The notes under the pieces are model-generated. The model had not been told where the DNA came from and made no database searches. It saw only the letters and a list, made by a program, of their open reading frames with translations. The position numbers were made by a program, and so were the translations under genes. A stretch of 64,000 nt of DNA from a virus. Shown here piece after piece: positions 3,123-62,362 of this stretch (positions within the stretch are counted from its first letter, which is position 1; each line of letters opens with the position of its first letter). The stretch lies in the IMG/VR virus record IMGVR_UViG_3300020048_000136. The stretch is one strand, 5' to 3'.

Positions 3123-4577
3123 TTATAAATTTAAGGTTAGTAAATCTCTTTTAAAGTGTCTAAGCGTGTAGTCCTTCTTCTTGGTAACAGCCTTGTAAAT
3201 CATTGGCTCAATCCCTCCCTCAGAGAATACCCAATAAACATCATTCTTCAGCCTATCCTTTGTCGTCATCCTGTCCCGTGACTGCCAATAGCTTGTTGCG
3301 CTAAAGTCAATATTAAAATAAACAAGGCAGTCGGCTTGCTTCAGCGATATACCTTCCCTGCCCGAAACAATCTGAAGAGCAATTGATTTGTCCGTGTCTT
3401 CGAAGACATTAAGTTCAGTTGTTAGGTCATCACCGAATACCTTCTTCAGTACATTTAGCTCCTCAATGAACTTATAGAAGATTCCAATCTTCTTTCCGTT
3501 AAAGTAAGAGCGGATGAAGTCAGCCTTGGAGGTATCTATTATCATTGAATTCCCACTCTCAAACTTCACCGTGCCTGAGTACATTTGGTGTAGCTTCATC
3601 ATCAACTTCACAGGAGTATCTCCCAAGATAACCTCCTCCTTGCCTTCAATAACCAAGTCCTTGCGCAGGTTGGCAGTTAACTTATAAGTTAAGTCGCTCA
3701 TGCGAACCTTCAATACAGTCTCAATTGTTTGAACTACAAATCCCGCATCCTTTTGAGAGTACTGAATAGTGTATGGCTTCATCGCCTGTAGGATATCTTC
3801 GCTACCGTGAGAGTAATCCCTCATGAACAATCCATTTATCTTCTTCTCCTTCACATCCACATACCTGTCACAGAATCTGTAGAAATTAGAGAACTCATTG
3901 AATGGATTATTTGGGATGCCATAAACTTGATGATACATCTGAGAGTACGATTCGGGTGTTGGAGTGCCTGACATCAGTATAACCTTGGGTCTGAACCTCT
4001 TGACAATGTCATGGATGCTCTTCGCACGTATACTCGGCTTGGGGAATGCACCCATAGAGTGTGACTCATCGCAAATTACCACATCCCACTTAGTTTGTGG
4101 TATCTTGTGCAAACTTTCATAGTTTACTACGTGCAACTCAAAGGATGGATTTAAGAGGTTGTAATCACTTATGATGGACGACATAGCCTTCTTCTTCGTT
4201 ACGAAGAGAACGTGCGCCACATCCAAGGAATCGCATATCCCAAGACTTGTTAAGGTCTTTCCTGTTCTCACCTCCATGGCAAGGAGCAGAAATCCATGCT
4301 TTCGGATGACCTCTGCTCCACTTTTAATTATCTCCTTCTGATATTCTCGTAGTTCCACGTTGCTTATTTTAGGGTTGCTGCTGTAGTATTCGATGCTATT
4401 TAAAATCCTGTGTGTATACTTTGGCTCATCCACGTACTTCCTATTCTTGGTGATGGTCGTTCCCTTCTTTGTTGTCTTCACGATATCATACTCAGATAGC
4501 ATAACATCACGAAGCAGCTTGCAATACTGAACCATGTCCTCATTTGAGTACCCTATTGTTCTGTTTATTATATCCAT
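3123..4577 (-). CDS. SNF2/DEAD-like superfamily 2 helicase
   Basis: Walker A EVRTGKTLTS, DExH box VICDESH, motif III MSGTPTPES, and C-terminal helicase motifs SGREGISL and QSRDRMTT. Confidence 0.8.
   Translation of the reverse strand: MDIINRTIGYSNEDMVQYCKLLRDVMLSEYDIVKTTKKGTTITKNRKYVDEPKYTHRILNSIEYYSSNPKISNVELREYQKEIIKSGAEVIRKHGFLLLAMEVRTGKTLTSLGICDSLDVAHVLFVTKKKAMSSIISDYNLLNPSFELHVVNYESLHKIPQTKWDVVICDESHSMGAFPKPSIRAKSIHDIVKRFRPKVILMSGTPTPESYSQMYHQVYGIPNNPFNEFSNFYRFCDRYVDVKEKKINGLFMRDYSHGSEDILQAMKPYTIQYSQKDAGFVVQTIETVLKVRMSDLTYKLTANLRKDLVIEGKEEVILGDTPVKLMMKLHQMYSGTVKFESGNSMIIDTSKADFIRSYFNGKKIGIFYKFIEELNVLKKVFGDDLTTELNVFEDTDKSIALQIVSGREGISLKQADCLVYFNIDFSATSYWQSRDRMTTKDRLKNDVYWVFSEGGIEPMIYKAVTKKKDYTLRHFKRDLLTLNL
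3395..3408. repeat. palindrome TGTCTTCGAAGACA (inside the SNF2 helicase ORF; read as VFED)
   Basis: Exact match read from the sequence. Confidence 0.95.
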
Positions 4578-7874: not shown

Positions 7875-7977
7875 AATTGAAAGTTGTTTTTGTTTTTGTG
7901 TCCCAAATATTTATAATATAGTGCCGAAGATTGGAACGTACTTCGTCATTATATGGAGTGTCGTCAAAGACAAATCG

Positions 7978-8067
7978 TGGTTGGAATGGGAATCGAACCC
8001 ATACTCCGCAGAAGATACCCCACTTTCGTGGCTCGACTACATAGTGCTGCCATTACACTATCCAACC
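7978..8067 (-). tRNA. tRNA-like gene with a non-canonical, expanded anticodon arm (no assignable anticodon)
   Basis: Minus-strand RNA has acceptor stem GGUUGGA/UCCAACC and a D-arm GUG(U)-AAUGGCA-(G)CAC. The T-arm is AUGGG-UUCGAUU-CCCAU, the discriminator is A, and no CCA is encoded. The anticodon position holds stem UGUAG/CUGCG enclosing 25 nt, which include a CCAC-GAAA-GUGG hairpin. Confidence 0.55.
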
Positions 8068-11851: not shown

Positions 11852-12242
11852 AAATAACCTCCCCTAAAACTATGTACTGAAAGATAACGTCACTTGACTC
11901 GGCATCTCCATTATCTTCAATCTCGCTAATCAGATATGATATCATATTGTCATCGTCAGCAATCTTCTGTAGTCGCTCCCACATAGTACTCATTGAGATT
12001 GTTCCTAAGCACTCATCCTCTTCTTCCCCATCATGGATATCAATATCAATATTCATGTCGTAGACGGCTTTAAATAGAGCCGTAGATAAGCAAGGGTCTT
12101 CAGTCTTGGGGACAGCAGCCCTAATCTTCTTGATGCTGTGTTCGGGGATGAAGTACCAATAATTACTACCACCCTCAATAGCGGTTATAAAGATGCACTC
12201 CAACACTTCTCGTGTAATCTCTTTCTTTACGGTGATGTTCAT
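11844..12242 (-). CDS. hypothetical acidic protein (132 aa)
   Basis: Track ORF. Confidence 0.55.
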   Translation of the reverse strand: MNITVKKEITREVLECIFITAIEGGSNYWYFIPEHSIKKIRAAVPKTEDPCLSTALFKAVYDMNIDIDIHDGEEEDECLGTISMSTMWERLQKIADDDNMISYLISEIEDNGDAESSDVIFQYIVLGEVIYG

Positions 12243-12583
12243 AACAGATTCAGTTTTAATTGTGTATAATTAGGTAAGTTAATTGGCTGCTCCTTAAATA
12301 CGGATAGCTTGCTCTCGGCTTTCTTCAGCCCCACGTATGGAGGTGAGTGACTGCCTGATGTAGCTACAGAATAGAACTTGAGAACTAAATCATCAGTCCA
12401 TCTGAACCCATCTCCATAGCCCTCAAGATGCAGGGATTTAAAGATTCGAATCTTGTCGGCTACCTTCCTCGCTCCGCAGTACGGAGGTTCATCGGCACAT
12501 CCCGAATGATAGACTCGGATAAATTGCCTCAACAGGTCTTCAGTCCATTGAAACCCATCCGATTCAATTTTTGTTTTTGTCAT
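12239..12583 (-). CDS. hypothetical protein made of two tandem ~45-aa repeats
   Basis: DGFQWTEDLLRQFIRVYHSG...PPYCGARKVADKIRIFKS is followed by DGFRWTDDLVLKFYSVATSG...PPYVGLKKAESKLSVFKE. The start is moved to the ATG at 12583 because 12584-12613 belongs to the conserved hammerhead tail. Confidence 0.55.
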   Translation of the reverse strand: MTKTKIESDGFQWTEDLLRQFIRVYHSGCADEPPYCGARKVADKIRIFKSLHLEGYGDGFRWTDDLVLKFYSVATSGSHSPPYVGLKKAESKLSVFKEQPINLPNYTQLKLNLL

Positions 12584-12603
12584 AGGTTTATTTATTAAGG
12601 GTT

Positions 12604-12654
12604 TCCGTTTCATCGTTTACGAATCATCGGTCAGGATACACATCCCAAGACAGA
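12604..12654 (-). ncRNA. hammerhead ribozyme-like element HHR-3 (type III topology, U4C core variant)
   Basis: Minus RNA reads UCUGU-C | UUGGGAU-GUGU-AUCCUGA | CCGAUGA | UUCG-UAAA-CGAU | GAA-ACGGA. Same architecture as HHR-1 and HHR-2, with compensatory changes in stem I and a G.U pair in stem III. Confidence 0.5.
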
Positions 12655-12683
12655 AGGAGTGTCTTCGACGACACCCCAACCCT

Positions 12684-13844
12684 TTATTCTCTAAATTTAA
12701 CTACCTCCTCTTCTCTGAACCATATCCCGCAAGACTTGCAGTAATAGTTCGCAAACCCATCAAACTCCAAATCAGAATAGCAATCAACGCACATAGCGTT
12801 CTCCTCGGTGATATTGAAATCAGTAGGAGTAGTTCCCGTTATGAAATCCTGCTCGGATAATCCCGACATAAAATCAAGTTCGTACCTTACATCAGCATCT
12901 TGGAATCGGGATGGCTTATAAGTAATTTCGGGACGAGTCTGAGGTGTAGGAGTATATTTCGGAGCATAACCCATAATCCTTTCAGTATATGTGCGAAAAT
13001 CCTGCTTGTATGCTTTGTGGAATGTAGCATTGGCGCTTATCATCTTCGGATTGAAGTATAACCAACATACAAGGACATTCCCGTTAGCCATCTTGATAGG
13101 AATCTGCTGCCTCTGATACCAATTGGGATGACCTTCCAACCTATCCAAATCAGTTAGCTTATCATCGCTGACCTTGAAAACATCAACAGCAACATTATGC
13201 CCGATACCTTTGCGATTCACTACATAAGGTAGCCCCTCTATTATTAACGGATACTTATCCTTGGTGACTCCATTGCCGACATAAGTACTCTTGGTAAGAT
13301 ACGACTGATAGTTATTGTATCCCTTCTTCAGAGTCCCGTATACGGCAACCAAATGCTCTTGGAGGACATTGCCCTTTGAGTACCAAATATCGCCTCTCAT
13401 TGACCATAGCTGTTGATTGTAAATCTCGTATGTTTTAGTCTTTACGTTGACCGTGACAAACCTGCATGGGTATTTTGCAAGTTCTTCTTCCCAACCGCTC
13501 CTCGGAATCAATCCTAACTTTTCAGCCAACACTTTGCTGTCAGTCTTTTTGTGAGTCCCGATACCCTGTATTGTACCGTTCATCATGAGCCATTCATCCG
13601 AATTTGCACCGCATTGGAATGGATGAGTATTGTCTTTCCCAATCTTGCCAACCGTAGCATAGCGGAAGTGCGCTATAAATGGTCGGGCTGTATCAAGAAC
13701 CTTAAATTCTGATGACTTGTGATAACTGATACTGTAGTCATCAAGCCATACAACACCCAACCCGTCAGGATTGATTAAGGATGATGTCTTGGCTATCTCT
13801 GTGGACAGCCTCTCATTCGACTTCTTAATGATTATTACACACAT
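12684..13844 (-). CDS. fusion protein: class II (Ntn) glutamine amidotransferase, gamma-glutamylcyclotransferase (AIG2/GGACT-like) domain, and C-terminal zinc ribbon
   Basis: N-terminus MC(2)VIII with HFRYATVG...NTHPF...MMNGTI (GATase-II pattern). Central AVYGTLKKGYNNY...LDRLEGHPNWYQR (GGCT/AIG2 pattern). C-terminus CVDC...CKSC. Confidence 0.7.
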   Translation of the reverse strand: MCVIIIKKSNERLSTEIAKTSSLINPDGLGVVWLDDYSISYHKSSEFKVLDTARPFIAHFRYATVGKIGKDNTHPFQCGANSDEWLMMNGTIQGIGTHKKTDSKVLAEKLGLIPRSGWEEELAKYPCRFVTVNVKTKTYEIYNQQLWSMRGDIWYSKGNVLQEHLVAVYGTLKKGYNNYQSYLTKSTYVGNGVTKDKYPLIIEGLPYVVNRKGIGHNVAVDVFKVSDDKLTDLDRLEGHPNWYQRQQIPIKMANGNVLVCWLYFNPKMISANATFHKAYKQDFRTYTERIMGYAPKYTPTPQTRPEITYKPSRFQDADVRYELDFMSGLSEQDFITGTTPTDFNITEENAMCVDCYSDLEFDGFANYYCKSCGIWFREEEVVKFRE

Positions 13845-15994: not shown

Positions 15995-16048
15995 TCCGTT
16001 TCGACTGTTTTCAGTCTTCATCAGCGAAGATACACATCTTCGGACGGA
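15995..16048 (-). ncRNA. hammerhead ribozyme HHR-1 (type III topology)
   Basis: Minus RNA reads UCCGU-C | CGAAGAU-GUGU-AUCUUCG | CUGAUGA | A | GACUG-AAAA-CAGUC | GAA-ACGGA. All core residues are present: C3-A9, G12A13A14, A15.1-U16.1 and the GUC cleavage triplet. One extra nt lies between A9 and G10.1. Confidence 0.75.
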
Positions 16049-16401: not shown

Positions 16402-16455
16402 TCCGTTTCGACTCTTTAGAGTCATCATCAGCGAAAGCACTCACCTTCGGACGGA
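16402..16455 (-). ncRNA. hammerhead ribozyme HHR-2 (type III topology)
   Basis: Minus RNA reads UCCGU-C | CGAAGGU-GAGU-GCUUUCG | CUGAUGA | U | GACUC-UAAA-GAGUC | GAA-ACGGA. The core is identical to HHR-1, and stems I and II carry compensatory differences. Confidence 0.75.
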
Positions 16456-40560: not shown

Positions 40561-40600
40561 GGGATGTGGTGTCTTCAAAGACACTACTCCCTTCTTTTTT
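40561..40600 (+). terminator. rho-independent terminator after the capsid gene (embeds TGTCTTCAAAGACA)
   Basis: GGGA-tgt-GGTGTCTT-ca-AAGACAC-tac-TCCC followed by TTCTTTTTT. Confidence 0.75.
40570..40583. repeat. palindrome TGTCTTCAAAGACA (capsid terminator)
   Basis: Exact match. Confidence 0.95.
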
Positions 40601-52705: not shown

Positions 52706-55700
52706 ATGAACGAGCAAGCAATCAAGGATTCCTACGAATTATTTGTTGCAAATGGGTATGGAAAATCTATTGATGACTACAAGACCCTCATTGCATCAAA
52801 TCCAAATGCTCTTAAGGATTCATACGACCTATTTGTTGAGAATGGGTACGGAAGAACTATTGATGATTACAAGACACTCATGGGGGTTGGTATTTCTGCT
52901 GAGCCTACTGTAAAAAAAAAAGAAGTTTCCTCTCAGCCTGTTACTACCGATTTGCGAATTTCTTCAAATCCTCAGGCAATGGAGGCTATCGGGAACAGGA
53001 TAGAGCAGATAGACCCACTATCTCAGCATAATCTAAATAAAGAACAGTCGATATCTAACGCATATAAGGCAGCTGAAAATCCTCCAAACGAGGAGAAGAA
53101 GGAAGGGAACTTCCTTACCAAGGCAGCCTCATTAATCTTCAAAGGTCTTCTGTTCCAAAAGGAAATTGAGAGCCAAGTTGAGTCGGGGACAACTAAGCTT
53201 GTCTCGGGCGCATTAGGTGTACCCGAGATTGCTTGGGATGTTGCAAGTTCAGCGCCAAGGGCATTAGGCATTCCCGTTCAACATTGGAGAGATACTCCTT
53301 GGGTACAATCTGCCGATGTTGCGGGTGTTGAGTTGAACCCTATTGCTCATATGGAGAACACCAAGAACTATTTGTTTGAGCGTGGTAAGGAGATAGACAA
53401 GTATGTCAGAACCATAAATCCCGAATTGGACAAGGGCGCTTTAACTGCATTTTCAGAAGGTGATGTTGGATTAGGTTTCAGAAATCTTATTAGCGGTACG
53501 GCTCAGTCTCTGCCAACTACCGTGGCTATTGCTGCCTCGGGAGGTACTGCTGCGCCTGCTATGGTAGGGTTTCAAGTAGGTACATTTGCCGAGCAGTCAT
53601 ATCAGCAGTCATTGGATGATAATGACTATGAGAAGATAGGTCAAGACAGACTTGCTCTTGTGAGCCTTTTGTCGGGGTCTATGGAGTACACATTTGAAAG
53701 CGTATTGGGAGCAGGAGCAACGGCAGCAGCAATAAGGAAACTAATTGAGCGGGAAGGTAAGGATGTTGCAGAGGGTGTTGTACGCAAAGGAATCAAGAAC
53801 GGGTTCGTTGATATGCTTATCACTAACCCTTGGCTTGCGCCTTTAGGTGATTCTTTCGAGGAGGGAGCGACTCAGCTTTCTCAGAACGTCATCAATAAAT
53901 ATTCGGGATACAAACCCGACATTAAGATAATGGATGGTGTCGGAGAGAGTATGCTCCAAGGCTCATTCATGGGTATCGCAATGGGAGGCACATTGAAGGC
54001 TGTAGCTATGTCTCAGAAAGAAAAGCTTCCATCGCAGAAAGAGGCTGATGAGAAGATAAGAGGTATCGCTGATAGGCTTATGAACCCCGAGAATCTCCCG
54101 CTTGTCAGCACATCTATGGAGCGGGTAGTTAAGTGGAGTGAGATGATGAATAGCTTGGGCAGGATTGATGAGCAGACTTACAATCGAATCCAAGAGAACG
54201 TATCGAACTATCGTGCTGCCACAGACCTATTAAGTGTCGGTAAAGGGGAAAAGACTACCCCGAAACCCGAGACTGTAACCCGTCTGATGGATTTATTGGC
54301 AGCAAAGAAAGACTTGACATCCACCAAGGATAGGGCAGAGTACTACTCTGATGAGATTAGGCGCATCAATGATGAGATTCTGAACGTAACTCAGAACAAA
54401 GAAGTTCCCGAGGGAAACAATCGTGAGTACATCAATCAGTTAGTCAACGATATCGTGGCTCATACCCGTGTTGGTGTTCCCTCATATACCATTGATGGTG
54501 TTGAGTATGCCAAGGATAAGTTCACCGAGATTATAAGTGGCATGACTGCCAATGATTTCAAGGCGCACAAGATTGGTGTGTCGAATGATAAAGAAACATC
54601 TAACCTTTTAATCGAAAGAAGCAATGCCATTCAAGAGCCAAGCACAGAGGAGAGCCTGCCACGCAGCGAACAACCCGAAGTGGGACTGCCAAAAGTGGGA
54701 GAAGGAGACACCCAAGAACAAACCGCTCCCGAAGTACTTCAAGCCAAACAAGAAGAAGTAACCGCTGAGGTAGCAACGGAGGCTTCTCCTGCTGCCGAAA
54801 CAGTTACCGCTGCCGAGACTGCCACCGAGCAAGAGCCTGCCGTAGAGGTCACCGCAGAGCCTGCTGTAACAGAAACTACTGAGGTGGTATCTGAGGCGGG
54901 TGAGACTGCCGTGAGGGAAGTGTCTTCAAAGACACTTGAAGGAACTAAGTATGACTTGTCGGATGTGGATAAGTCCACAAGCACAATCGCTACCTTGGCA
55001 AGCACAGCAAGGGAGGAGAAGAGAGCATTCTTGACTGAAAGGAAAGCTGAACTGTTAAATACAGTAGAGACAGCGCCTTCCGAGAACCCGTCAACCGCTC
55101 GGGCATTAGAAGAACTTCAGTCTGTAGAGAAGAGGATAGAGTCATTGGCTATAGCTGACAAGATTGACGAGGTGAAAGCTAAGCTTGCCGCTGCAACAAA
55201 CGCAAAGGACAAGGCTAAGTGGGACAAGGAGAATACTAACCTTCAGAACAGATTCCGTGAGTTGAATGGTAACTTCTCATACAGTGGATACGAACTGATA
55301 TCGCATACAAACCGTGATATTGTTAAGGCTAAGTCGTATAAAGACCTTGCTGAGAAGTACCATGCTGCCAAGCAGGACGGCACAAATCCTGCATTGGTGA
55401 AAGCTGTTGAGGAGTTGGCTTATAAAGGGGCGGGTATCCCTGCTCCCGAGGCTGTTGTTCAGACCGAAGCGCCTGCACAAGAGACAGCGCCCGTTCAAGC
55501 TGAGACCACACAAGTAGCGCCTGCACAAGAGACAGTCGTAGAGGCTGCTCCTGCCAAGCCTGCTAAAGCTGCCAAGCCTGCTGTTAAAAGCGAGGTAGAG
55601 GCTATTGAGGAGGATATACAGTTCTACGAGATGAAGGTAGAGGATTTCATTGAAGACAATAAGTCATCTCTCTCTGAGTTAAAGGAGGACATCGCCAATC

Positions 55701-58700
55701 TGAAGAAGAAGAAGGATGGAGTTCGCTCATCAAATATGACTCGGGCAGAAAAGGCTGAGGCGATAGAGGAGATTGACTCCGACATAGAAGAACTTAAGGA
55801 CAACTACGATGCTGTTGTTGAGTCTAATAACAATGACATCAGAGAGCATAAATCAGAATTAAATAAACTAAAAAAGAAATTAGCAAAGGCTCAGCTTAAA
55901 GCAAAAGCCTCCACCACATCACAAACAACCAAGGCAAATGGACAAGAAAACACAGAATCAGCAAGTGGCACTAACCAAGGAGCAGGAGAAGGAACTTCTA
56001 AGTTATCCCGACTATTGGAGACCATCACTCAGAGAAGCAGCGTTAAGAGGGGAATCAATAAAAAAGACGTACGAAGAGAACAAACAGTTAGAGGCTTTCA
56101 TGTAAACATCATAAGTGAGATAACCTTTGACAAATCACTATCGTCTAAACTCAAAAAAGCATTCTCGGGGTTCAAGGGAACTCAGAAGGTTTACGAGATA
56201 ACGAATGGTGATTCGTTCTTGGCATTGCAGAAGAAAGCTTTAGAGAACAACAAGTTCGGCACATCGGTCACATACAAATCCGCAGAGGATTACAATAGTA
56301 CACGAATGTTTATTACTGAGGACGGGTCAACGGGATTAGTCCTAACTAAGGACGGTGAACTCTCGGCAGGATTCTCAGATGGGACACGACCAAACAATAT
56401 CTCTCAGCTTCTTATCCTTGGTATCAAAGAAGGCGCTCAGCATATAGAGTGCTTCGATACCGTGCTTCCTCACTACTATTCTAAGTTCGGGTTCAAAATC
56501 AAATCAAGACTTGAGTTCAACGATGAGATGAAACCCGAGGGGTGGGACTATGAGACGTACAAGAACTTCAACAATGGCAAACCCGATGTCCTTTTTGGCA
56601 TATATGAGGGTGGTGATAGGAACACCATTGAGGATAGGATAGGCACATTAGGTGACTACAATAAGGACGAGGCAAAGAAATTTGATAAGGATAGTTATCA
56701 GCAGGCACACGATTTCAACCTTAACGAAGACGTAAAGGTTCGTAAGGCAGAGGGTGTATATGAAGAAACAGTTGCTGATGAGGCTTCTCGGTTAGAGTCA
56801 TTGCTTGACGATGGCGCTCAGTTCCAACTTGAGACCGAGCCGTCAGATGTGCAGGAGAGCATGATTGCTGAGGCTGAGAAGATGATGGCTGAAGCTGAGG
56901 CGCAAGGATTCTCTGAGAATGCTTTTGATGCCACTAATCCCGAGCCTGCCGTGGTTCAGATTCCTATAGTGATAAGGGAGAACTCAAAGCTTGCCGATAA
57001 GGTAAAGCGCATGGGGTTATCTGAACTTATAGGGAAGAAGGTAAACCTTGTCATGGCTGACCAACTAAAGGTTGGTAGTGTGATGGTTGGTAAGAAGAGG
57101 CTCAATAGAATGGGAGGTCACCTATTCCCTCTCATCGACAAGCTGTTCGGGAAGGTTGCTTGGGCATCAATAGATAGAGCTGCTGCTAAGAAAATTGTTA
57201 TCGGTGCTATAAAATCAGACTATACTGTGGTTTACAACATGGATACCAAAGCTATAGATTCTAATAAAGCAATGAGAGAGACGTTCTTGGGGATGATAGA
57301 GGCGCTTCCAAAGGAGCAGAGCGATGTTATTCTCAAGCAAATACTATCACACCTTGACGGGAAGAAGTTCGCAAAGGCAACTGCTGCTGTGCATAAGGCA
57401 CTTGATAATGTTAAAACATTCAAGGAGTTTGAAGATGCCCTCTCTACTTTAAATGTTGATGCTAAAGCAAAAATAGTAAACTTACTAATACCTTCTGATA
57501 AAGTAAAGGCTGCTTCTGATTTAGGGAAGACCTTACAGAGTTTAGACATCTCTGTTGAATCAATTCGCAGGCAGAACATAGAGCAGTTCGTATCTGAGCT
57601 GCCAATGGGTGCTATGACGATGGTTCTTGAAGTTCACGATAAGAATGGAAATCGTGTGACCGCAGAAACATTGGATGAGGCTATTATGACAAGGGAGCAG
57701 CAAGAAGCTGAGGGTCTGCCTACGCATGATAACTATCCGTTCTATGTTAGAGGTAAAGCAGTAGCTATCTTAAAAGAGACTGTCCCCTTTTGGCATATGC
57801 TAAAGCAAAGCTTGGATAAAATAAATAAAAAAACTGCCAAGATATTAAGGGATAAAAACGATAATATAATAACAGCTAATACTGCGTTACTGAATGAGAT
57901 GTATATGGCTCAAAGGTCTGCAACAAATGCAAAAGAACTTACAGACCCAAATACCACACACTATCAGAAGTTTGTTGCGTTATTGTCAAGGTCATTCCCT
58001 ACAGTAAAGGTTGCAACAGAAGCTGAGTTCAATAACTTGATAGATAACCTTGGCGCTCAGACTCTTTTAGTTAAGAAACAAAAGGTATATGGCGCAGTAT
58101 ACGGAGGTAAGGTCTATCTTAACCCTACTCTTGAGAACTACAACACACCTATCCATGAGTTTGGGCACATATGGACTAACGTTACAAAGGCATCCAATCC
58201 AAAGCTATACGAGAAGGGAATCTCTCTTGTAAAAGGCTCATCTTATGAGAGCAGAGTCCTTAACAGTCCCGACTACAAGAGGATTGTAAGGAAGATGCGT
58301 GAGAGTGGCTCTACTGTTCAGCAGATAAACGAGTATGTGGCTGAGGAGGCTCTCGCTATGGCTATCGGTGACAAGGGTGAGTCATTCATAATAGCCTCAC
58401 AGAGGGCATCGTTTAATGATTGGCTGAACAAGATGTACTCGGCATTCAAGAACATGATGGGTATCTCAAAGTATACCACCGAGCAGCTTGAGAATATAAC
58501 CCTTGATGAGTTCACTAAGGCTATCGCTGTTGACCTTCTGTCGGGAGGTCAGCTATTCTCCAATGAGGAGGTTGACAATGCTGCCAAGAAGCTACAGTTG
58601 GATACAGCAGGACGTAGTGCCGAGGCAATAGTTAAGAAGGCTCGGGAGAATGGATTCTCTGAGGAGTCAATCAGAGTGGTTCTCAACAAGAGAGGCTACT

Positions 58701-61700
58701 CTCCTGCCGAGATTACCGAGGCAATGTCCAATATTGCTCCAACCGCTACGCTGTCAGAAGATATTCTTGAGGGATACGATGCCCTTATGAAGAAGGTTGA
58801 TGACAAGATTCGCACACAAATCGCCAACAAGGTTGATGTGAAAGCCATCGCCAAGTACTTGGATAAGATGCTTGCCAAGAGTGAGGTGTACAATAATGCC
58901 ACCGATGCTCAGAAGAAACGGTTGGAACTTGAGGTTAAGAACAAGCTGAATGTAAGGGAGAATCGGACGGCTACCTTGGGTCGCTTCTTTGGTGCTATCA
59001 AGGATGTGACGGGAATGTCTAACTCCGACAAGAAGAAGATTGTTCGCAGTATCAGAGACTTGTCACAAGACTCGGCAAAGCACATCACTCAAGAACTGAG
59101 GATGTTGGCAGAGACGGGGAAGGTTACCTTAAACCAAGTAAATAATATCATATCGAAGTTCGGCAAGACGAATCTGAATAGCGAGACATCCGTGTCTCAC
59201 TTTGTTGACTACATGTCCAAGGTATTTAAGGATGCTGAGTACTCAGCTAAGCTTAGTGATGCCAACAAGATGATGAAGTCAATCAAGAAGCTGTCCAAGA
59301 ACAAGGACAAGGATGCCAATTTAAGGGCATTAGCGAGCGCCTTTATAAAAATCAACCCTGCTACCGTTGATGACATAGATATGTACAACAGCGTGGCTGC
59401 AAAGATAAACGAGGCTATAAAAGGGTCAACCATGCGTGGGCAGAATGTTACGTTTGCCGAGTCGGTAAACATAGCTGAGGCATCCGAGTACATACGGGAG
59501 ACCATTGATGCGCAGAACGATAAGATTCGCAAGGATAGGATAGCTGAGATTCAGCAGCTTATGGGTGTTGATGTCTCTGACTTGAGTGCTGAGGATATGT
59601 TGGAGTTCTTATCCAACGATGAGCCTATCACCAAGTACAACGAGGGGATAGTGAGAAGCACAATCAACAAGATGTTCAATATCTACTCTACGCTTATAAG
59701 CGAATCATTCTCTACGGGCAAGGATGTCTTTACTGATGAGGATGTCAGCTTTACGCAGGAGCAGATGGAACTTGTCAATAAGTTCATGTCTATGGACTTG
59801 AAGTTGCTCAGTCCCAAGAATGCTCTCAAGGCGGTGGATGCTCTATCAAACTTCCTACAGAACAAATCGACTGCCAAGATGCAGGCGGTGGTATCTGAGT
59901 ATGCAGGAGAGTATAACGCACAAGCATTGGTTCGCAAGGGTGTTAAGTCAAGGGTTCTTCGTAAGTATTACTTTAAGAACATTGGTCGATTCTTGACAGA
60001 GCAAACATATAATCTGAACATGGTATTTGAGCGCATGTTCGGTGGTGTAAACAGCGGAGCGTTGGTCAAAAGACTTTCGGGAATGGCTGATGTCATTAAC
60101 AATAAGGCTCTTGCTCAGAGGATGTCATCAGATATTACTAAGCGATATGTAGATAGGTTCTATCATAGGACTACAAATGGTCAACCTTTCAACTCAGAGT
60201 ACAATGAGGTTGAGCGTGGTGTGTATGCCTTTATGACGAGGAATGTCATAGGAACTGAGGCTGAGATGAAAGCTGAGTTCGGGCGCAGGAAGACGTTACT
60301 TGAGGAGACAATTGATGCATTATCCAAAGGAGACTCAAAGGAGCAGGCTATAGCTGCTCTATACCAAAGCGCATACATAGGCATAGTAGCTGAAGCTAAG
60401 ACCATAAAAGACATATATGACAATACGAGTTCAACAAATGTTGATGCTGTTGAGTTTTGGGTGTCGGAGTGGGCAGATAACTTTGAGCAGATGTCAGATG
60501 TTGCGTTAAATGTATACAACAAGGTGTTGGATAGAGACTTAAACTACACTCCCGATAGGTACTCAAGGCTTAGTGCTGACTCGGGAACGGTAGAACTTAG
60601 CAACGATGAGTCTGCATTCTTAAACAATACTGATGGTGTTATCTACAAGAAAGAAACGGGTGTGTTGATGACTGCAATAAAGCCTAAGACACTCCCAAAG
60701 AATCGGTATATCAATCTGTCATTCGATACCAACAACTCTAACTCAATGTACGATGCGCTTGTGGATATCAATACCGCATCAGCTATACGTCAAGTGGAGT
60801 CGTTCTTCAATTCAGATAGCTACAGTAAGATTGTCCAAAGCGGTGATGATGCTAAGCTTCTGAAGAATCGTGTAGCCTTATATGTTCAGAACATAAGGAG
60901 GAAGTCACCGTTCTCAAATGACGAGATGTCGGCAATGGTGCGAAACTTAAACAAGCTTGCCACAATCGGTGTCGGTCAAGCATTAGGTGGCGTAACTCAG
61001 CCACTAAAGCAGGTCATCTCCGTGGGAACAAATACCCTTGTAAATGCAGGGGGATTAGATGTATTATCTACATTTAATGCGGCTAAGAAATCATTTATTG
61101 ATAGATGCGGGTACGCTATTGCAAACCGTGGGATTGAGTCTCAGGCTCACGTTGAGTCTATAAATAAGTTGATTGAAGAAGCTTCAAAATCAACAGGAGA
61201 GAAAGCCCTGAAACTCATTGAGAAGGCTAACAAGAAATGGTTGGAAGTCTTCTTGGTAAATCCCGATGTATACATAGCAAGAATGTCTTGGATGACATAC
61301 TACGAGAAGGCATTGCGGGCAGACGGAATAGACCCAAGCAGGATAGACTACAACACGGCTGAGGTTAATACCAAGGCAGCTGACTACGCACAAGAGATGG
61401 TGGATAGGCAGCAGAACGTGTCAGATACTGACATGGCAGGCAAGGTATTCAGCAATAAAGAGCCGTCCAATCAGATTCTTGTTAAGACTTTGCTCCCGTT
61501 TGCAAGCTTTAGGATGAACCAATCCGCTCGTTTAGGTACGGACATATCTGTTCTGACATCTAAGACATCTACTGTTGAGGATAAGATAATAGCGGGTAGG
61601 TCTGTAGCAGGGTTCGGGGTCGAGATGGTTGTGTTCCATGCTTTAGGTGTGGGTATTGCACTCACGTTGGGAAGTATAGCTAAGGCGCTGTTGGGCAAAG

Positions 61701-62362
61701 ATGAGGATGACGAAGAATATGCAAAGAGGAAGAAGAATATTATGAAGGGTAGAGGCTCTTCTGTGGTAGCCGACATGTTCTCACCAATACCCATTGCTGA
61801 TAAGTTGGTTCAGATGGCAGCAAGCTATGCGTTGAATGAGGCTCAAGATATGATGGATGTAAGTGAGGAGGATAAGTTAGCTATCTATAGCAGCAACAAG
61901 CAGGACTTTGTTCAAGCCATGGGGACTTTTGGAATAGCATATGATAGGGCAAAGCAGCTGTATGACCTTGTATCTCTTTCGGCTACGGGTGAATACAAAG
62001 ATGACTTTGGTGTTGAGAAGAAGATAACTGAAGCCAACCAAGATAAGCTTAAGTACTTTATCCCTGCTGCCGTCATGGTAAACATGGGGTTAGCGCCATC
62101 GGAGACGAGTTCAGTTATACGCTACTCAATAAAGTATGCCAAGGAGAAGAGCAAGAAGGTTGGAGGTGAGTCATCAGAGGGAGGCATGACCAAGGAGGAC
62201 ATGAAGACCTACATGCCCAAGACATATGAGAGGATGTACGGGAAGAACTCTGCTGATGCAAAGATGAAGGAGAAGATTAAGGCGCATACAAAGCCTTATG
62301 ATGACAAGATGAAGGCTTATAAAGCTAAGATGAAGTTGATGGGAAAGAGAAGTGGATTATAG
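52706..62362 (+). CDS. giant multidomain (polyvalent-type) virion protein, 3218 aa, with a GNAT-like domain, a zincin HExxH motif and a C-terminal TM region
   Basis: N-terminal tandem repeat DSYELFVANGYGKSIDDYKTL / DSYDLFVENGYGRTIDDYKTL. Acidic Thr/Glu/Ala/Pro linker around 54600-55600. GNAT-like segment around 56085-56530 (...ECFDTVLPHYYSKFGFK). HEFGH at 58154-58168. TM helices near 61600-61700. Confidence 0.7.
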   Translation: MNEQAIKDSYELFVANGYGKSIDDYKTLIASNPNALKDSYDLFVENGYGRTIDDYKTLMGVGISAEPTVKKKEVSSQPVTTDLRISSNPQAMEAIGNRIEQIDPLSQHNLNKEQSISNAYKAAENPPNEEKKEGNFLTKAASLIFKGLLFQKEIESQVESGTTKLVSGALGVPEIAWDVASSAPRALGIPVQHWRDTPWVQSADVAGVELNPIAHMENTKNYLFERGKEIDKYVRTINPELDKGALTAFSEGDVGLGFRNLISGTAQSLPTTVAIAASGGTAAPAMVGFQVGTFAEQSYQQSLDDNDYEKIGQDRLALVSLLSGSMEYTFESVLGAGATAAAIRKLIEREGKDVAEGVVRKGIKNGFVDMLITNPWLAPLGDSFEEGATQLSQNVINKYSGYKPDIKIMDGVGESMLQGSFMGIAMGGTLKAVAMSQKEKLPSQKEADEKIRGIADRLMNPENLPLVSTSMERVVKWSEMMNSLGRIDEQTYNRIQENVSNYRAATDLLSVGKGEKTTPKPETVTRLMDLLAAKKDLTSTKDRAEYYSDEIRRINDEILNVTQNKEVPEGNNREYINQLVNDIVAHTRVGVPSYTIDGVEYAKDKFTEIISGMTANDFKAHKIGVSNDKETSNLLIERSNAIQEPSTEESLPRSEQPEVGLPKVGEGDTQEQTAPEVLQAKQEEVTAEVATEASPAAETVTAAETATEQEPAVEVTAEPAVTETTEVVSEAGETAVREVSSKTLEGTKYDLSDVDKSTSTIATLASTAREEKRAFLTERKAELLNTVETAPSENPSTARALEELQSVEKRIESLAIADKIDEVKAKLAAATNAKDKAKWDKENTNLQNRFRELNGNFSYSGYELISHTNRDIVKAKSYKDLAEKYHAAKQDGTNPALVKAVEELAYKGAGIPAPEAVVQTEAPAQETAPVQAETTQVAPAQETVVEAAPAKPAKAAKPAVKSEVEAIEEDIQFYEMKVEDFIEDNKSSLSELKEDIANLKKKKDGVRSSNMTRAEKAEAIEEIDSDIEELKDNYDAVVESNNNDIREHKSELNKLKKKLAKAQLKAKASTTSQTTKANGQENTESASGTNQGAGEGTSKLSRLLETITQRSSVKRGINKKDVRREQTVRGFHVNIISEITFDKSLSSKLKKAFSGFKGTQKVYEITNGDSFLALQKKALENNKFGTSVTYKSAEDYNSTRMFITEDGSTGLVLTKDGELSAGFSDGTRPNNISQLLILGIKEGAQHIECFDTVLPHYYSKFGFKIKSRLEFNDEMKPEGWDYETYKNFNNGKPDVLFGIYEGGDRNTIEDRIGTLGDYNKDEAKKFDKDSYQQAHDFNLNEDVKVRKAEGVYEETVADEASRLESLLDDGAQFQLETEPSDVQESMIAEAEKMMAEAEAQGFSENAFDATNPEPAVVQIPIVIRENSKLADKVKRMGLSELIGKKVNLVMADQLKVGSVMVGKKRLNRMGGHLFPLIDKLFGKVAWASIDRAAAKKIVIGAIKSDYTVVYNMDTKAIDSNKAMRETFLGMIEALPKEQSDVILKQILSHLDGKKFAKATAAVHKALDNVKTFKEFEDALSTLNVDAKAKIVNLLIPSDKVKAASDLGKTLQSLDISVESIRRQNIEQFVSELPMGAMTMVLEVHDKNGNRVTAETLDEAIMTREQQEAEGLPTHDNYPFYVRGKAVAILKETVPFWHMLKQSLDKINKKTAKILRDKNDNIITANTALLNEMYMAQRSATNAKELTDPNTTHYQKFVALLSRSFPTVKVATEAEFNNLIDNLGAQTLLVKKQKVYGAVYGGKVYLNPTLENYNTPIHEFGHIWTNVTKASNPKLYEKGISLVKGSSYESRVLNSPDYKRIVRKMRESGSTVQQINEYVAEEALAMAIGDKGESFIIASQRASFNDWLNKMYSAFKNMMGISKYTTEQLENITLDEFTKAIAVDLLSGGQLFSNEEVDNAAKKLQLDTAGRSAEAIVKKARENGFSEESIRVVLNKRGYSPAEITEAMSNIAPTATLSEDILEGYDALMKKVDDKIRTQIANKVDVKAIAKYLDKMLAKSEVYNNATDAQKKRLELEVKNKLNVRENRTATLGRFFGAIKDVTGMSNSDKKKIVRSIRDLSQDSAKHITQELRMLAETGKVTLNQVNNIISKFGKTNLNSETSVSHFVDYMSKVFKDAEYSAKLSDANKMMKSIKKLSKNKDKDANLRALASAFIKINPATVDDIDMYNSVAAKINEAIKGSTMRGQNVTFAESVNIAEASEYIRETIDAQNDKIRKDRIAEIQQLMGVDVSDLSAEDMLEFLSNDEPITKYNEGIVRSTINKMFNIYSTLISESFSTGKDVFTDEDVSFTQEQMELVNKFMSMDLKLLSPKNALKAVDALSNFLQNKSTAKMQAVVSEYAGEYNAQALVRKGVKSRVLRKYYFKNIGRFLTEQTYNLNMVFERMFGGVNSGALVKRLSGMADVINNKALAQRMSSDITKRYVDRFYHRTTNGQPFNSEYNEVERGVYAFMTRNVIGTEAEMKAEFGRRKTLLEETIDALSKGDSKEQAIAALYQSAYIGIVAEAKTIKDIYDNTSSTNVDAVEFWVSEWADNFEQMSDVALNVYNKVLDRDLNYTPDRYSRLSADSGTVELSNDESAFLNNTDGVIYKKETGVLMTAIKPKTLPKNRYINLSFDTNNSNSMYDALVDINTASAIRQVESFFNSDSYSKIVQSGDDAKLLKNRVALYVQNIRRKSPFSNDEMSAMVRNLNKLATIGVGQALGGVTQPLKQVISVGTNTLVNAGGLDVLSTFNAAKKSFIDRCGYAIANRGIESQAHVESINKLIEEASKSTGEKALKLIEKANKKWLEVFLVNPDVYIARMSWMTYYEKALRADGIDPSRIDYNTAEVNTKAADYAQEMVDRQQNVSDTDMAGKVFSNKEPSNQILVKTLLPFASFRMNQSARLGTDISVLTSKTSTVEDKIIAGRSVAGFGVEMVVFHALGVGIALTLGSIAKALLGKDEDDEEYAKRKKNIMKGRGSSVVADMFSPIPIADKLVQMAASYALNEAQDMMDVSEEDKLAIYSSNKQDFVQAMGTFGIAYDRAKQLYDLVSLSATGEYKDDFGVEKKITEANQDKLKYFIPAAVMVNMGLAPSETSSVIRYSIKYAKEKSKKVGGESSEGGMTKEDMKTYMPKTYERMYGKNSADAKMKEKIKAHTKPYDDKMKAYKAKMKLMGKRSGL
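54921..54934. repeat. palindrome TGTCTTCAAAGACA (inside the giant ORF; read as VSSKT)
   Basis: Exact match. Confidence 0.95.

Follow-up and report, generated by a model that had tools for sequence, protein, structure and literature searches.

By comparative sequence analysis, HHR-3, an element on the minus strand at 12603-12655 of the 64-kb viral DNA analysed here (the window), is a true homologue of a widespread family of hammerhead ribozymes and not a look-alike. It can be folded on paper as a type III hammerhead with the core CCGAUGA, in which C replaces U at position 4 (U4C). We consider HHR-3 to be, on balance, probably an attenuated but working mRNA-processing ribozyme, which would be co-transcribed and would cleave itself more slowly than HHR-1 and HHR-2, its two canonical sister copies in the window. 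Each of the three is on the coding strand within the leftward gene block (~1-19.8 kb).

Read along the minus strand from 12690 to 12581, the stop codon of the GATase-GGCT gene is followed by a GC hairpin, the hammerhead, an A/U-rich leader and ATG 12583. The intergenic space between the GATase-GGCT gene and the gene for a 114-aa protein holds this hairpin-hammerhead-leader cassette and nothing else. The features are as follows.

12684-13844, minus strand: GATase-GGCT gene (PF06094, PF13230), upstream of HHR-3
12686-12684, minus strand: stop codon TAA of the GATase-GGCT gene
12656-12677, minus strand: GC-rich hairpin GGGGUGUC-GUCGAA-GACACUCC, directly adjoining the hammerhead; one of the genome-wide copies of the palindrome GTGTC-N6-GACAC
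12650-12655, minus strand: stem III, 5' strand UUCUGU, with U16.1 at 12650 and one U.G wobble (sequence and family model)
12648-12649, minus strand: predicted cleavage site, C17 (12649) / U1.1 (12648), placed by position in the hammerhead consensus
12631-12648, minus strand: stem-loop I, UUGGGAU-GUGU-AUCCUGA, 7 bp including two G.U pairs (sequence and family model)
12624-12630, minus strand: catalytic core strand CCGAUGA, with C4 at 12629 (G on the plus strand) (sequence)
12612-12623, minus strand: stem-loop II, U-UCG-UAAA-CGA-U, with a U10.1.U11.1 mismatch, 3 bp and loop UAAA (sequence)
12603-12611, minus strand: G12 A13 A14 (12611-12609) and stem III, 3' strand ACGGAA (12608-12603) (sequence and family model)
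12584-12602, minus strand: A/U-rich leader of 19 nt, without a Shine-Dalgarno sequence, up to the ATG (sequence)
12239-12583, minus strand: downstream gene, 114 aa, start ATG 12583 (homologue gene calls and AUG analysis)
15995-16048, minus strand: HHR-1, canonical sister copy (family model, 53.3 bits)
16402-16455, minus strand: HHR-2, canonical sister copy (family model, 50.3 bits; RF00008, 31.8 bits, E=1.4e-5)

HHR-3 has the three helices of a type III hammerhead, with 6 bp in stem III, 7 bp in stem I and 3 bp plus the U.U mismatch in stem II. Within the invariant core (C3 U4 G5 A6 N7 G8 A9 / G12 A13 A14 / A15.1-U16.1 / H17), position 4 alone deviates. A preliminary description of the element had given its minus-strand RNA, and that reading proved exact at every base, including the core CCGAUGA with U4C. 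The four stem I pair differences that it listed between HHR-3 and HHR-1 and the G.U pair within stem III are also correct, and its cleavage site at 12649/12648 stands as a predicted placement that matches the hammerhead consensus. The 20-nt spacing to the start codon was recovered as 12603-12584, between 12604 (the last base of the 5-bp stem III element) and ATG 12583. The tail GAAACGGAAACC, described as conserved in all copies, matches exactly in HHR-1 and with one mismatch in HHR-2.

Homology of HHR-3 to a hammerhead family

When IMG/VR was scanned with a pattern and the matches were passed through a structural descriptor, dozens of similarly built type III hammerheads emerged, frequently with 3-5 on one contig. 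Alignment A1 comprised 57 unique hammerheads of identical geometry from other phage contigs, with the sequences of the window left out, and covariance model R1 was built from it. Run over the 64-kb window with filters off, R1 returned exactly three matches. HHR-3 was the best of these (12604-12654, full length 1-51, 55.9 bits, E=3.5e-14), followed by HHR-1 (53.3 bits) and HHR-2 (50.3 bits); the next match scored 8.5 bits. The initial identification of HHR-3 as hammerhead-like is thus borne out by a model that contains no sequence from the window.

In A1, 95.7% of cells were paired, a figure set partly by construction because the sequences were chosen with a pairing descriptor, and 13 of the 16 pairs had changed on both sides. 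The covariation score was 0.737, against 0.245 in shuffled alignments (0/500 reached it) and at most 0.12 in slid controls. The members also have loops, hairpin and leader in common, which the descriptor did not demand, and are therefore related. Two loop positions of A1 are invariant, T13 (the U closing stem I on its 5' side) and A39 (the last base of loop 2), and HHR-3 keeps both, as U12642 and A12616. Its loop 1, GUGU, is the commonest loop 1 among family hammerheads.

The Rfam models recovered little of this. At gathering thresholds, the whole 64-kb window gave no hammerhead match, and a 161-nt search gave none for HHR-3 even at E<=10. HHR-1 had no hammerhead match at either gathering or E-value thresholds. 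HHR-2 was the sole copy in the window to match Rfam Hammerhead_3 (31.8 bits, E=1.4e-5; gathering score 48.5), and none of the three copies reached the RF00008 gathering score of 48.5 bits. Canonical family members scored 32.5-44.1 bits against Hammerhead_3, with E down to 1.8e-6, likewise below the gathering score of 48.5. The assignment of HHR-3 to the hammerheads rests on its R1 match, on the covariation in A1 and on these family matches to Hammerhead_3. Searches of INPHARED phage DNA and proteins found no close cultured relative of the window, and the exact HHR-3 stem II/tail pattern was absent from JGI metagenomes.

Stem II of HHR-3 had been singled out as unusually short, a view that did not hold: it has the standard 12-nt family geometry with a U10.1.U11.1 mismatch, as seen in 16/57 members. 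The atypical stem II belongs to HHR-1 and HHR-2, which carry a 1-nt insertion and a 5-bp stem II. The U10.1.U11.1 mismatch is the best tolerated at that pair in natural hammerheads (PMC3088659). Mismatches at 10.1/11.1 were found in 5/7 C4 hammerheads vs 18/57, an enrichment that was not significant (p=0.09).

Across A1, the base at the cleavage site covaries with the first pair of stem II: GUC occurs with G10.1-C11.1 in 29/29 cases, and U.U or A.A at 10.1/11.1 occurs with GUA or GUU in 18/18. Descent within subfamilies or a structural link may account for this. The rule is broken by HHR-3 (12649; 12623/12612) and by the C4 hammerhead of contig L266, which both combine GUC with U.U, a combination absent from the 57 U4 members.

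The core substitution and the probable activity of HHR-3

Among 79 unique R1 hits on other contigs, the core was CUGAUGA in 65, CUGACGA in 9 and CCGAUGA in 5. The CUGACGA form differs at N7, a free position, and the conserved core of the 79 hits otherwise varies only at U4C. A C4 hammerhead at 2547-2596 of L037 was found without the seed pattern, and a compensatory change in stem I distinguishes the C4 hammerheads of L096 and L119 from each other. When IMG/VR was scanned for CCGAUGA at fixed geometry, 17 matches were obtained. Six of them (L266, L274, L276, L278, L279 and L280) were perfect hammerheads of the family type, each with a hairpin upstream, a stem I of 7 bp and a leader. Matched IMG/VR scans gave 28 matches with A or G at position 4 and 25 with any base but G at position 5, and neither set held a well-formed hammerhead. 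U4C was found in at least 11 other well-formed phage hammerheads and, judged by the matched controls, is the specific substitution that the family keeps at positions 4 and 5. This retention fits the behaviour of the viroid U4C variant which, according to the passage on it in PMC3088659, has much lower activity in vitro and is still infectious and functional in vivo.

To trace C4 at this site, we compared 13 full-length relatives of the GATase-GGCT protein (~50% identity), which are encoded on phage contigs of ~40-70 kb. In four of them (L239, L240, L246 and L250), a hairpin and a hammerhead directly follow the orthologous gene, and the core is CUGAUGA in all four; C4 is therefore probably the derived state. 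The element was absent from the site in the remaining 9/13. The loop 2 of HHR-3, UAAA, is a minority form in the family and is common to L239, L240 and L250. In the five positional orthologues, HHR-3 included, 92.5% of cells were paired and 6 pairs had changed on both sides, with compensatory changes in stem I; 0/500 shuffles reached the covariation score and slid controls gave at most 0.075. Structure-consistent conservation in relatives, the lack of which had been named as evidence against the element, is thus present.

The identical HHR-3, C4 included, was found in all seven other assemblies that cover it (L258-L263 and L265, independent ENA assemblies), which ruled out C4 as an assembly error. 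Over 7.6 kb, L258 and the window are collinear, with ~81-82% identity. Between the two, the intergenic region is identical at 98/100 positions and HHR-3 at 51/51; in the adjoining 300 nt of coding sequence, identity is 72% at the end of the upstream gene and 85% at the start of the downstream gene. This suggests constraint on the element. The identity is not decisive because both genomes are mosaics: stretches of 98-155 nt match perfectly in other places, and 7% of 100-nt windows are at least 98% identical. In HHR-1, stems I and II each carry one compensatory double substitution relative to L258.

HHR-3 is also an outlier of its family. With its hammerhead fold at -6.6 kcal/mol, it ranks lowest in predicted stability among 58 members of the same geometry, for which the medians were -13.1 kcal/mol in the mismatch class and -17.5 kcal/mol in the paired class. 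The ensemble probability of the fold was 0.002, against a family median of 0.31, and in the minimum-free-energy structure of the isolated 51-mer, stem III is missing and C3-C4-G5 pair with C15.2-G15.3-G15.4 instead. These thermodynamic predictions leave out tertiary contacts and therefore rank the members without deciding activity. C4 was rejected as the cause of the misfolding: the C4U back-mutation raised the probability of the hammerhead fold only from 0.007 to 0.012, and the effect of C4 on secondary structure is therefore minor. HHR-3 has three G.U pairs (the loop-closing pair excluded), compared with at most one in every other member, including six other C4 hammerheads.

The weak fold with its competing pairing, the three wobbles, the change at a conserved core position, the U4 state of every positional orthologue and the loss of the element at the site in most relatives would all be expected of a catalytically dead relic, persisting through slow decay or because the folded RNA serves the 114-aa gene only as a structured leader or spacer on its 5' side. 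In deep mutagenesis, moreover, mutations of the CUGA turn generally had low activity, according to a qualitative statement (PMC9901934). We nevertheless regard a relic as unlikely. All 16 helix positions of HHR-3 pair except for the family-typical U.U, its other core bases are intact, and it is preserved without a difference in a lineage whose flanking genes have diverged to 72-85% identity. Neutral decay would also predict other changes at positions 4 and 5, which were never seen, whereas C4 recurs in hammerheads with perfect stems. Because U4C is recurrent and specifically tolerated, the comparison favours a slow but active HHR-3 over a dead one, in spite of the weakest fold of the family.

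The wobble pairs bear on a further explanation, in which a leaky terminator overlies a weakened ribozyme. The hairpin followed by UUCUGUCUU would terminate part of the transcripts, only read-through RNAs would carry the hammerhead, and selection for a U-tract would have favoured C-to-U changes at the cost of weaker stems III and I. A consensus scan flagged 12677-12656 with the tail TTCTGTCTTG as terminator-like. Among 71 members, the sequence that follows the hairpin has its highest U content in HHR-3 (UUCUGUCUUG; 5 T in 8, compared with 2-3 for most). U's within this tail form two of the three wobble pairs, and at 40569 a gene ends in the same palindromic hairpin with a true T-run. The tract in HHR-3 is, however, interrupted (UUCUGUCUU) and satisfies only a simple consensus rule. 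The hairpins of other members abut a stem III that is not U-rich and cannot be efficient terminators, since the hammerhead downstream must be transcribed. As the principal account of HHR-3 we find partial termination improbable; it is also compatible with an attenuated ribozyme rather than exclusive of it.

If HHR-3 acts as an attenuated processing ribozyme, the leftward polycistronic RNA would carry the GATase-GGCT gene together with HHR-3, which would fold and cut itself between C12649 and U12648. The upstream mRNA would then end in the protective hairpin and UUCUGUC with a 2',3'-cyclic phosphate, and the mRNA of the downstream 114-aa gene would begin with a 5'-OH base buried in stem I, with a presumed effect on mRNA stability. 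U4C, the three G.U pairs and the U.U-type stem II would probably slow HHR-3 relative to HHR-1 and HHR-2, not kill it. It is conceivable, though improbable, that these features form a tuned kinetic gate, in which C4, GUC with U.U, the three wobbles and the U-rich tail set the split between termination, slow cleavage and read-through. If so, C4 hammerheads would be a distinct, selected subclass of slow or conditional phage hammerheads.

The cassette, the palindrome and the downstream start codon

The arrangement around HHR-3 is that of the family. A GC-rich hairpin lies upstream of the ribozyme in 70 of 81 unique family hammerheads and abuts stem III with zero gap in 59, and the first ATG follows the hammerhead at a median distance of 21 nt (IQR 19-23; 81 unique members). 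HHR-3 has all parts of the cassette on the coding strand, namely the abutting GC hairpin, the ~20-nt A/U-rich leader (20 nt to the ATG) and the ATG itself; 1 nt separates its hairpin (12656-12677) from the 5-bp stem III as modelled in R1.

The family hairpin often contains the palindrome GTGTCTTCAAAGACAC. In the window, the palindrome GTGTC-N6-GACAC (typically GTGTCTTCAAAGACAC) occurs at 8 sites vs 0.85 expected, with 16-bp copies at 3394, 7958, 12659, 20635, 33474, 40569, 54920 and 62362. Copies fall both within coding regions and at the ends of genes, as at 40569, where a true T-run follows. Exact copies were found in >120 IMG/VR contigs, with up to 9 per locus. Use of the palindrome as an unbiased sampler of hammerheads was rejected, because the palindrome is an independent and far more widespread element and a hammerhead follows only ~5% of copies. 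Besides an RNA hairpin, the palindrome may also be a site at the DNA level. The copy at 7958 adjoins a tRNA-Ser(CGA) with a long variable arm (window 7977-8067, minus strand; ARAGORN), which scores 42.9 bits in Rfam E-value mode, above its gathering score of 29, yet is unlisted in gathering mode. In the rightward gene block, one ORF of 3218 aa (window 52706-62362, plus strand) ends at another copy.

A 7-bp complement, AAGGGUU (12684-12678) and AACCCUU (12603-12597) on the minus strand, brackets the hairpin and hammerhead and is present in the minimum-free-energy structure of the 101-nt region. By way of a three-way junction, this helix would extend stem III of HHR-3. Its sequence is unchanged in L258, which leaves no covariation to judge it by. 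As a feature of the family, such a flank helix was rejected (mean longest complement 3.87 vs 3.74 permuted, p about 0.02).

The gene downstream of the positionally conserved hammerhead differs among L239, L240, L246, L250 and the window (12239-12583). The cassette therefore sits at a mosaic junction, and its site could be a recombination boundary. The 6-kb contig L037 (IMGVR_UViG_3300037574_000272) carries five hammerheads, two of them with a C4 core, and its leaders contain Shine-Dalgarno-like AGAGGA/GAGG motifs, unlike those of the window. Many MAGs (L336-L377) also contain hammerheads with the geometry of the family, in which a GUGU-type loop caps a 7-bp stem I and an AAAA loop a 4-bp stem II; these are MAGs notably of Saccharibacteria, Nomurabacteria, Paceibacteria and other Patescibacteria, and also of Polynucleobacter and Daejeonella rubra. 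On bacterial genome contigs, 20 of 42 pattern matches were well-formed hammerheads.

The ORF called downstream of HHR-3 begins at 12613, inside the ribozyme. If this start were real, the element could be a chance motif in coding sequence, the N-terminus of a 124-aa protein with a coincidental fold, and the reading frame from 12613 is in fact open and in frame with ATG 12583. The AUG at 12613, however, is built from ribozyme bases, A11.2-U11.1-G12. The same AUG is formed by 18 of 81 family members and is in frame and open to the real start in 3/18, roughly the chance expectation, and out of frame or stop-blocked in the other 15/18. The downstream protein has only two homologues among 5.8 billion sequences, and both, from other assemblies, were called at 114 aa. 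Together with the match to an independent family model (E=3.5e-14), this makes a coding origin of the motif extremely improbable. The preliminary description had suspected that the start at 12613 was wrong, and on these grounds (ribozyme bases, 3/18 in frame, homologues of 114 aa) its correction to ATG 12583 stands. No relatives of the 114-aa protein were found in IMG/VR or JGI metagenomes. The protein is an internal tandem duplication (DGFQWTEDLLRQF... and DGFRWTDDLVLKF...) without a Pfam domain on record.

Known hammerheads and significance

Like the type III hammerheads of RF00008 (clan CL00010), HHR-3 is a three-way junction in which loops close stems I and II and stem III is open, and it has C3, G5, A6, N7, G8, A9, G12, A13, A14, A15.1-U16.1 and the GUC triplet in common with them. 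Its conserved loop positions suggest contacts between loop 1 and loop 2, as in RF00008. It differs in having C instead of U at position 4 and U.U at 10.1/11.1.

Clustered hammerheads that flank single genes have been described in polycistronic transcripts of prophages and phages, and some of them cleave in vitro and in vivo (PMC3088659). The clusters of Perreault et al. 2011 (PMC3088659) resemble those described here in that a few kb of the coding strand hold several hammerheads, placed between short genes that vary in identity. Their proposed role, the cutting of long phage transcripts into gene-length mRNAs, matches the role proposed for HHR-3. Their examples are mostly type II or mixed and come from prophages of cultured bacteria, whereas here a uniform type III cassette with a GC hairpin and a fixed ~21-nt leader is found in ~60-kb uncultured phages. 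In their final hammerhead alignments, a core change was a disqualifier (PMC3088659).

Two natural core variants are closest to HHR-3. The viroid U4C hammerhead (Ambros and Flores 1998), as far as it is described where PMC3088659 cites it, has the same core substitution; it is a sequence variant of a replication ribozyme, whereas the U4C of HHR-3 is fixed in a DNA phage lineage. Like HHR-3, HHphage of the haloviruses HF1/HF2 (PMC3088659) is a core-variant hammerhead situated shortly before a start codon; the early transcript that contains it is polycistronic. The hammerhead lies 13 nt upstream of the start codon, and a 5' end has been mapped to its cleavage site (PMC3088659). Unlike HHR-3, it has insertions near C3 and belongs to an archaeal virus at high salt (PMC3088659).

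Gene-flanking phage hammerheads, U4C and U10.1.U11.1 as natural variants, and core-variant hammerheads near start codons are thus already known. As judged from the sequence comparisons, what is added here is a defined cassette family in ~60-kb aquatic phages that Rfam thresholds miss, and its hammerheads are also present in bacterial MAGs, especially of Patescibacteria. The matched scans add evidence that the family retains U4C in particular. For the window itself, the analysis of HHR-3 corrects a gene start and accounts for an intergenic region. More generally, curated Rfam thresholds miss a large phage hammerhead family, and ribozyme searches that discard all core variants would lose the U4C hammerheads. 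The hairpin-ribozyme-leader cassette would be a compact natural design for turning operon RNAs into messages with protected ends. Since U4C is the only change at core positions 4 and 5 in the family and occurs in many independent phage lineages, its variants may be working, possibly slower, ribozymes rather than dead ones.
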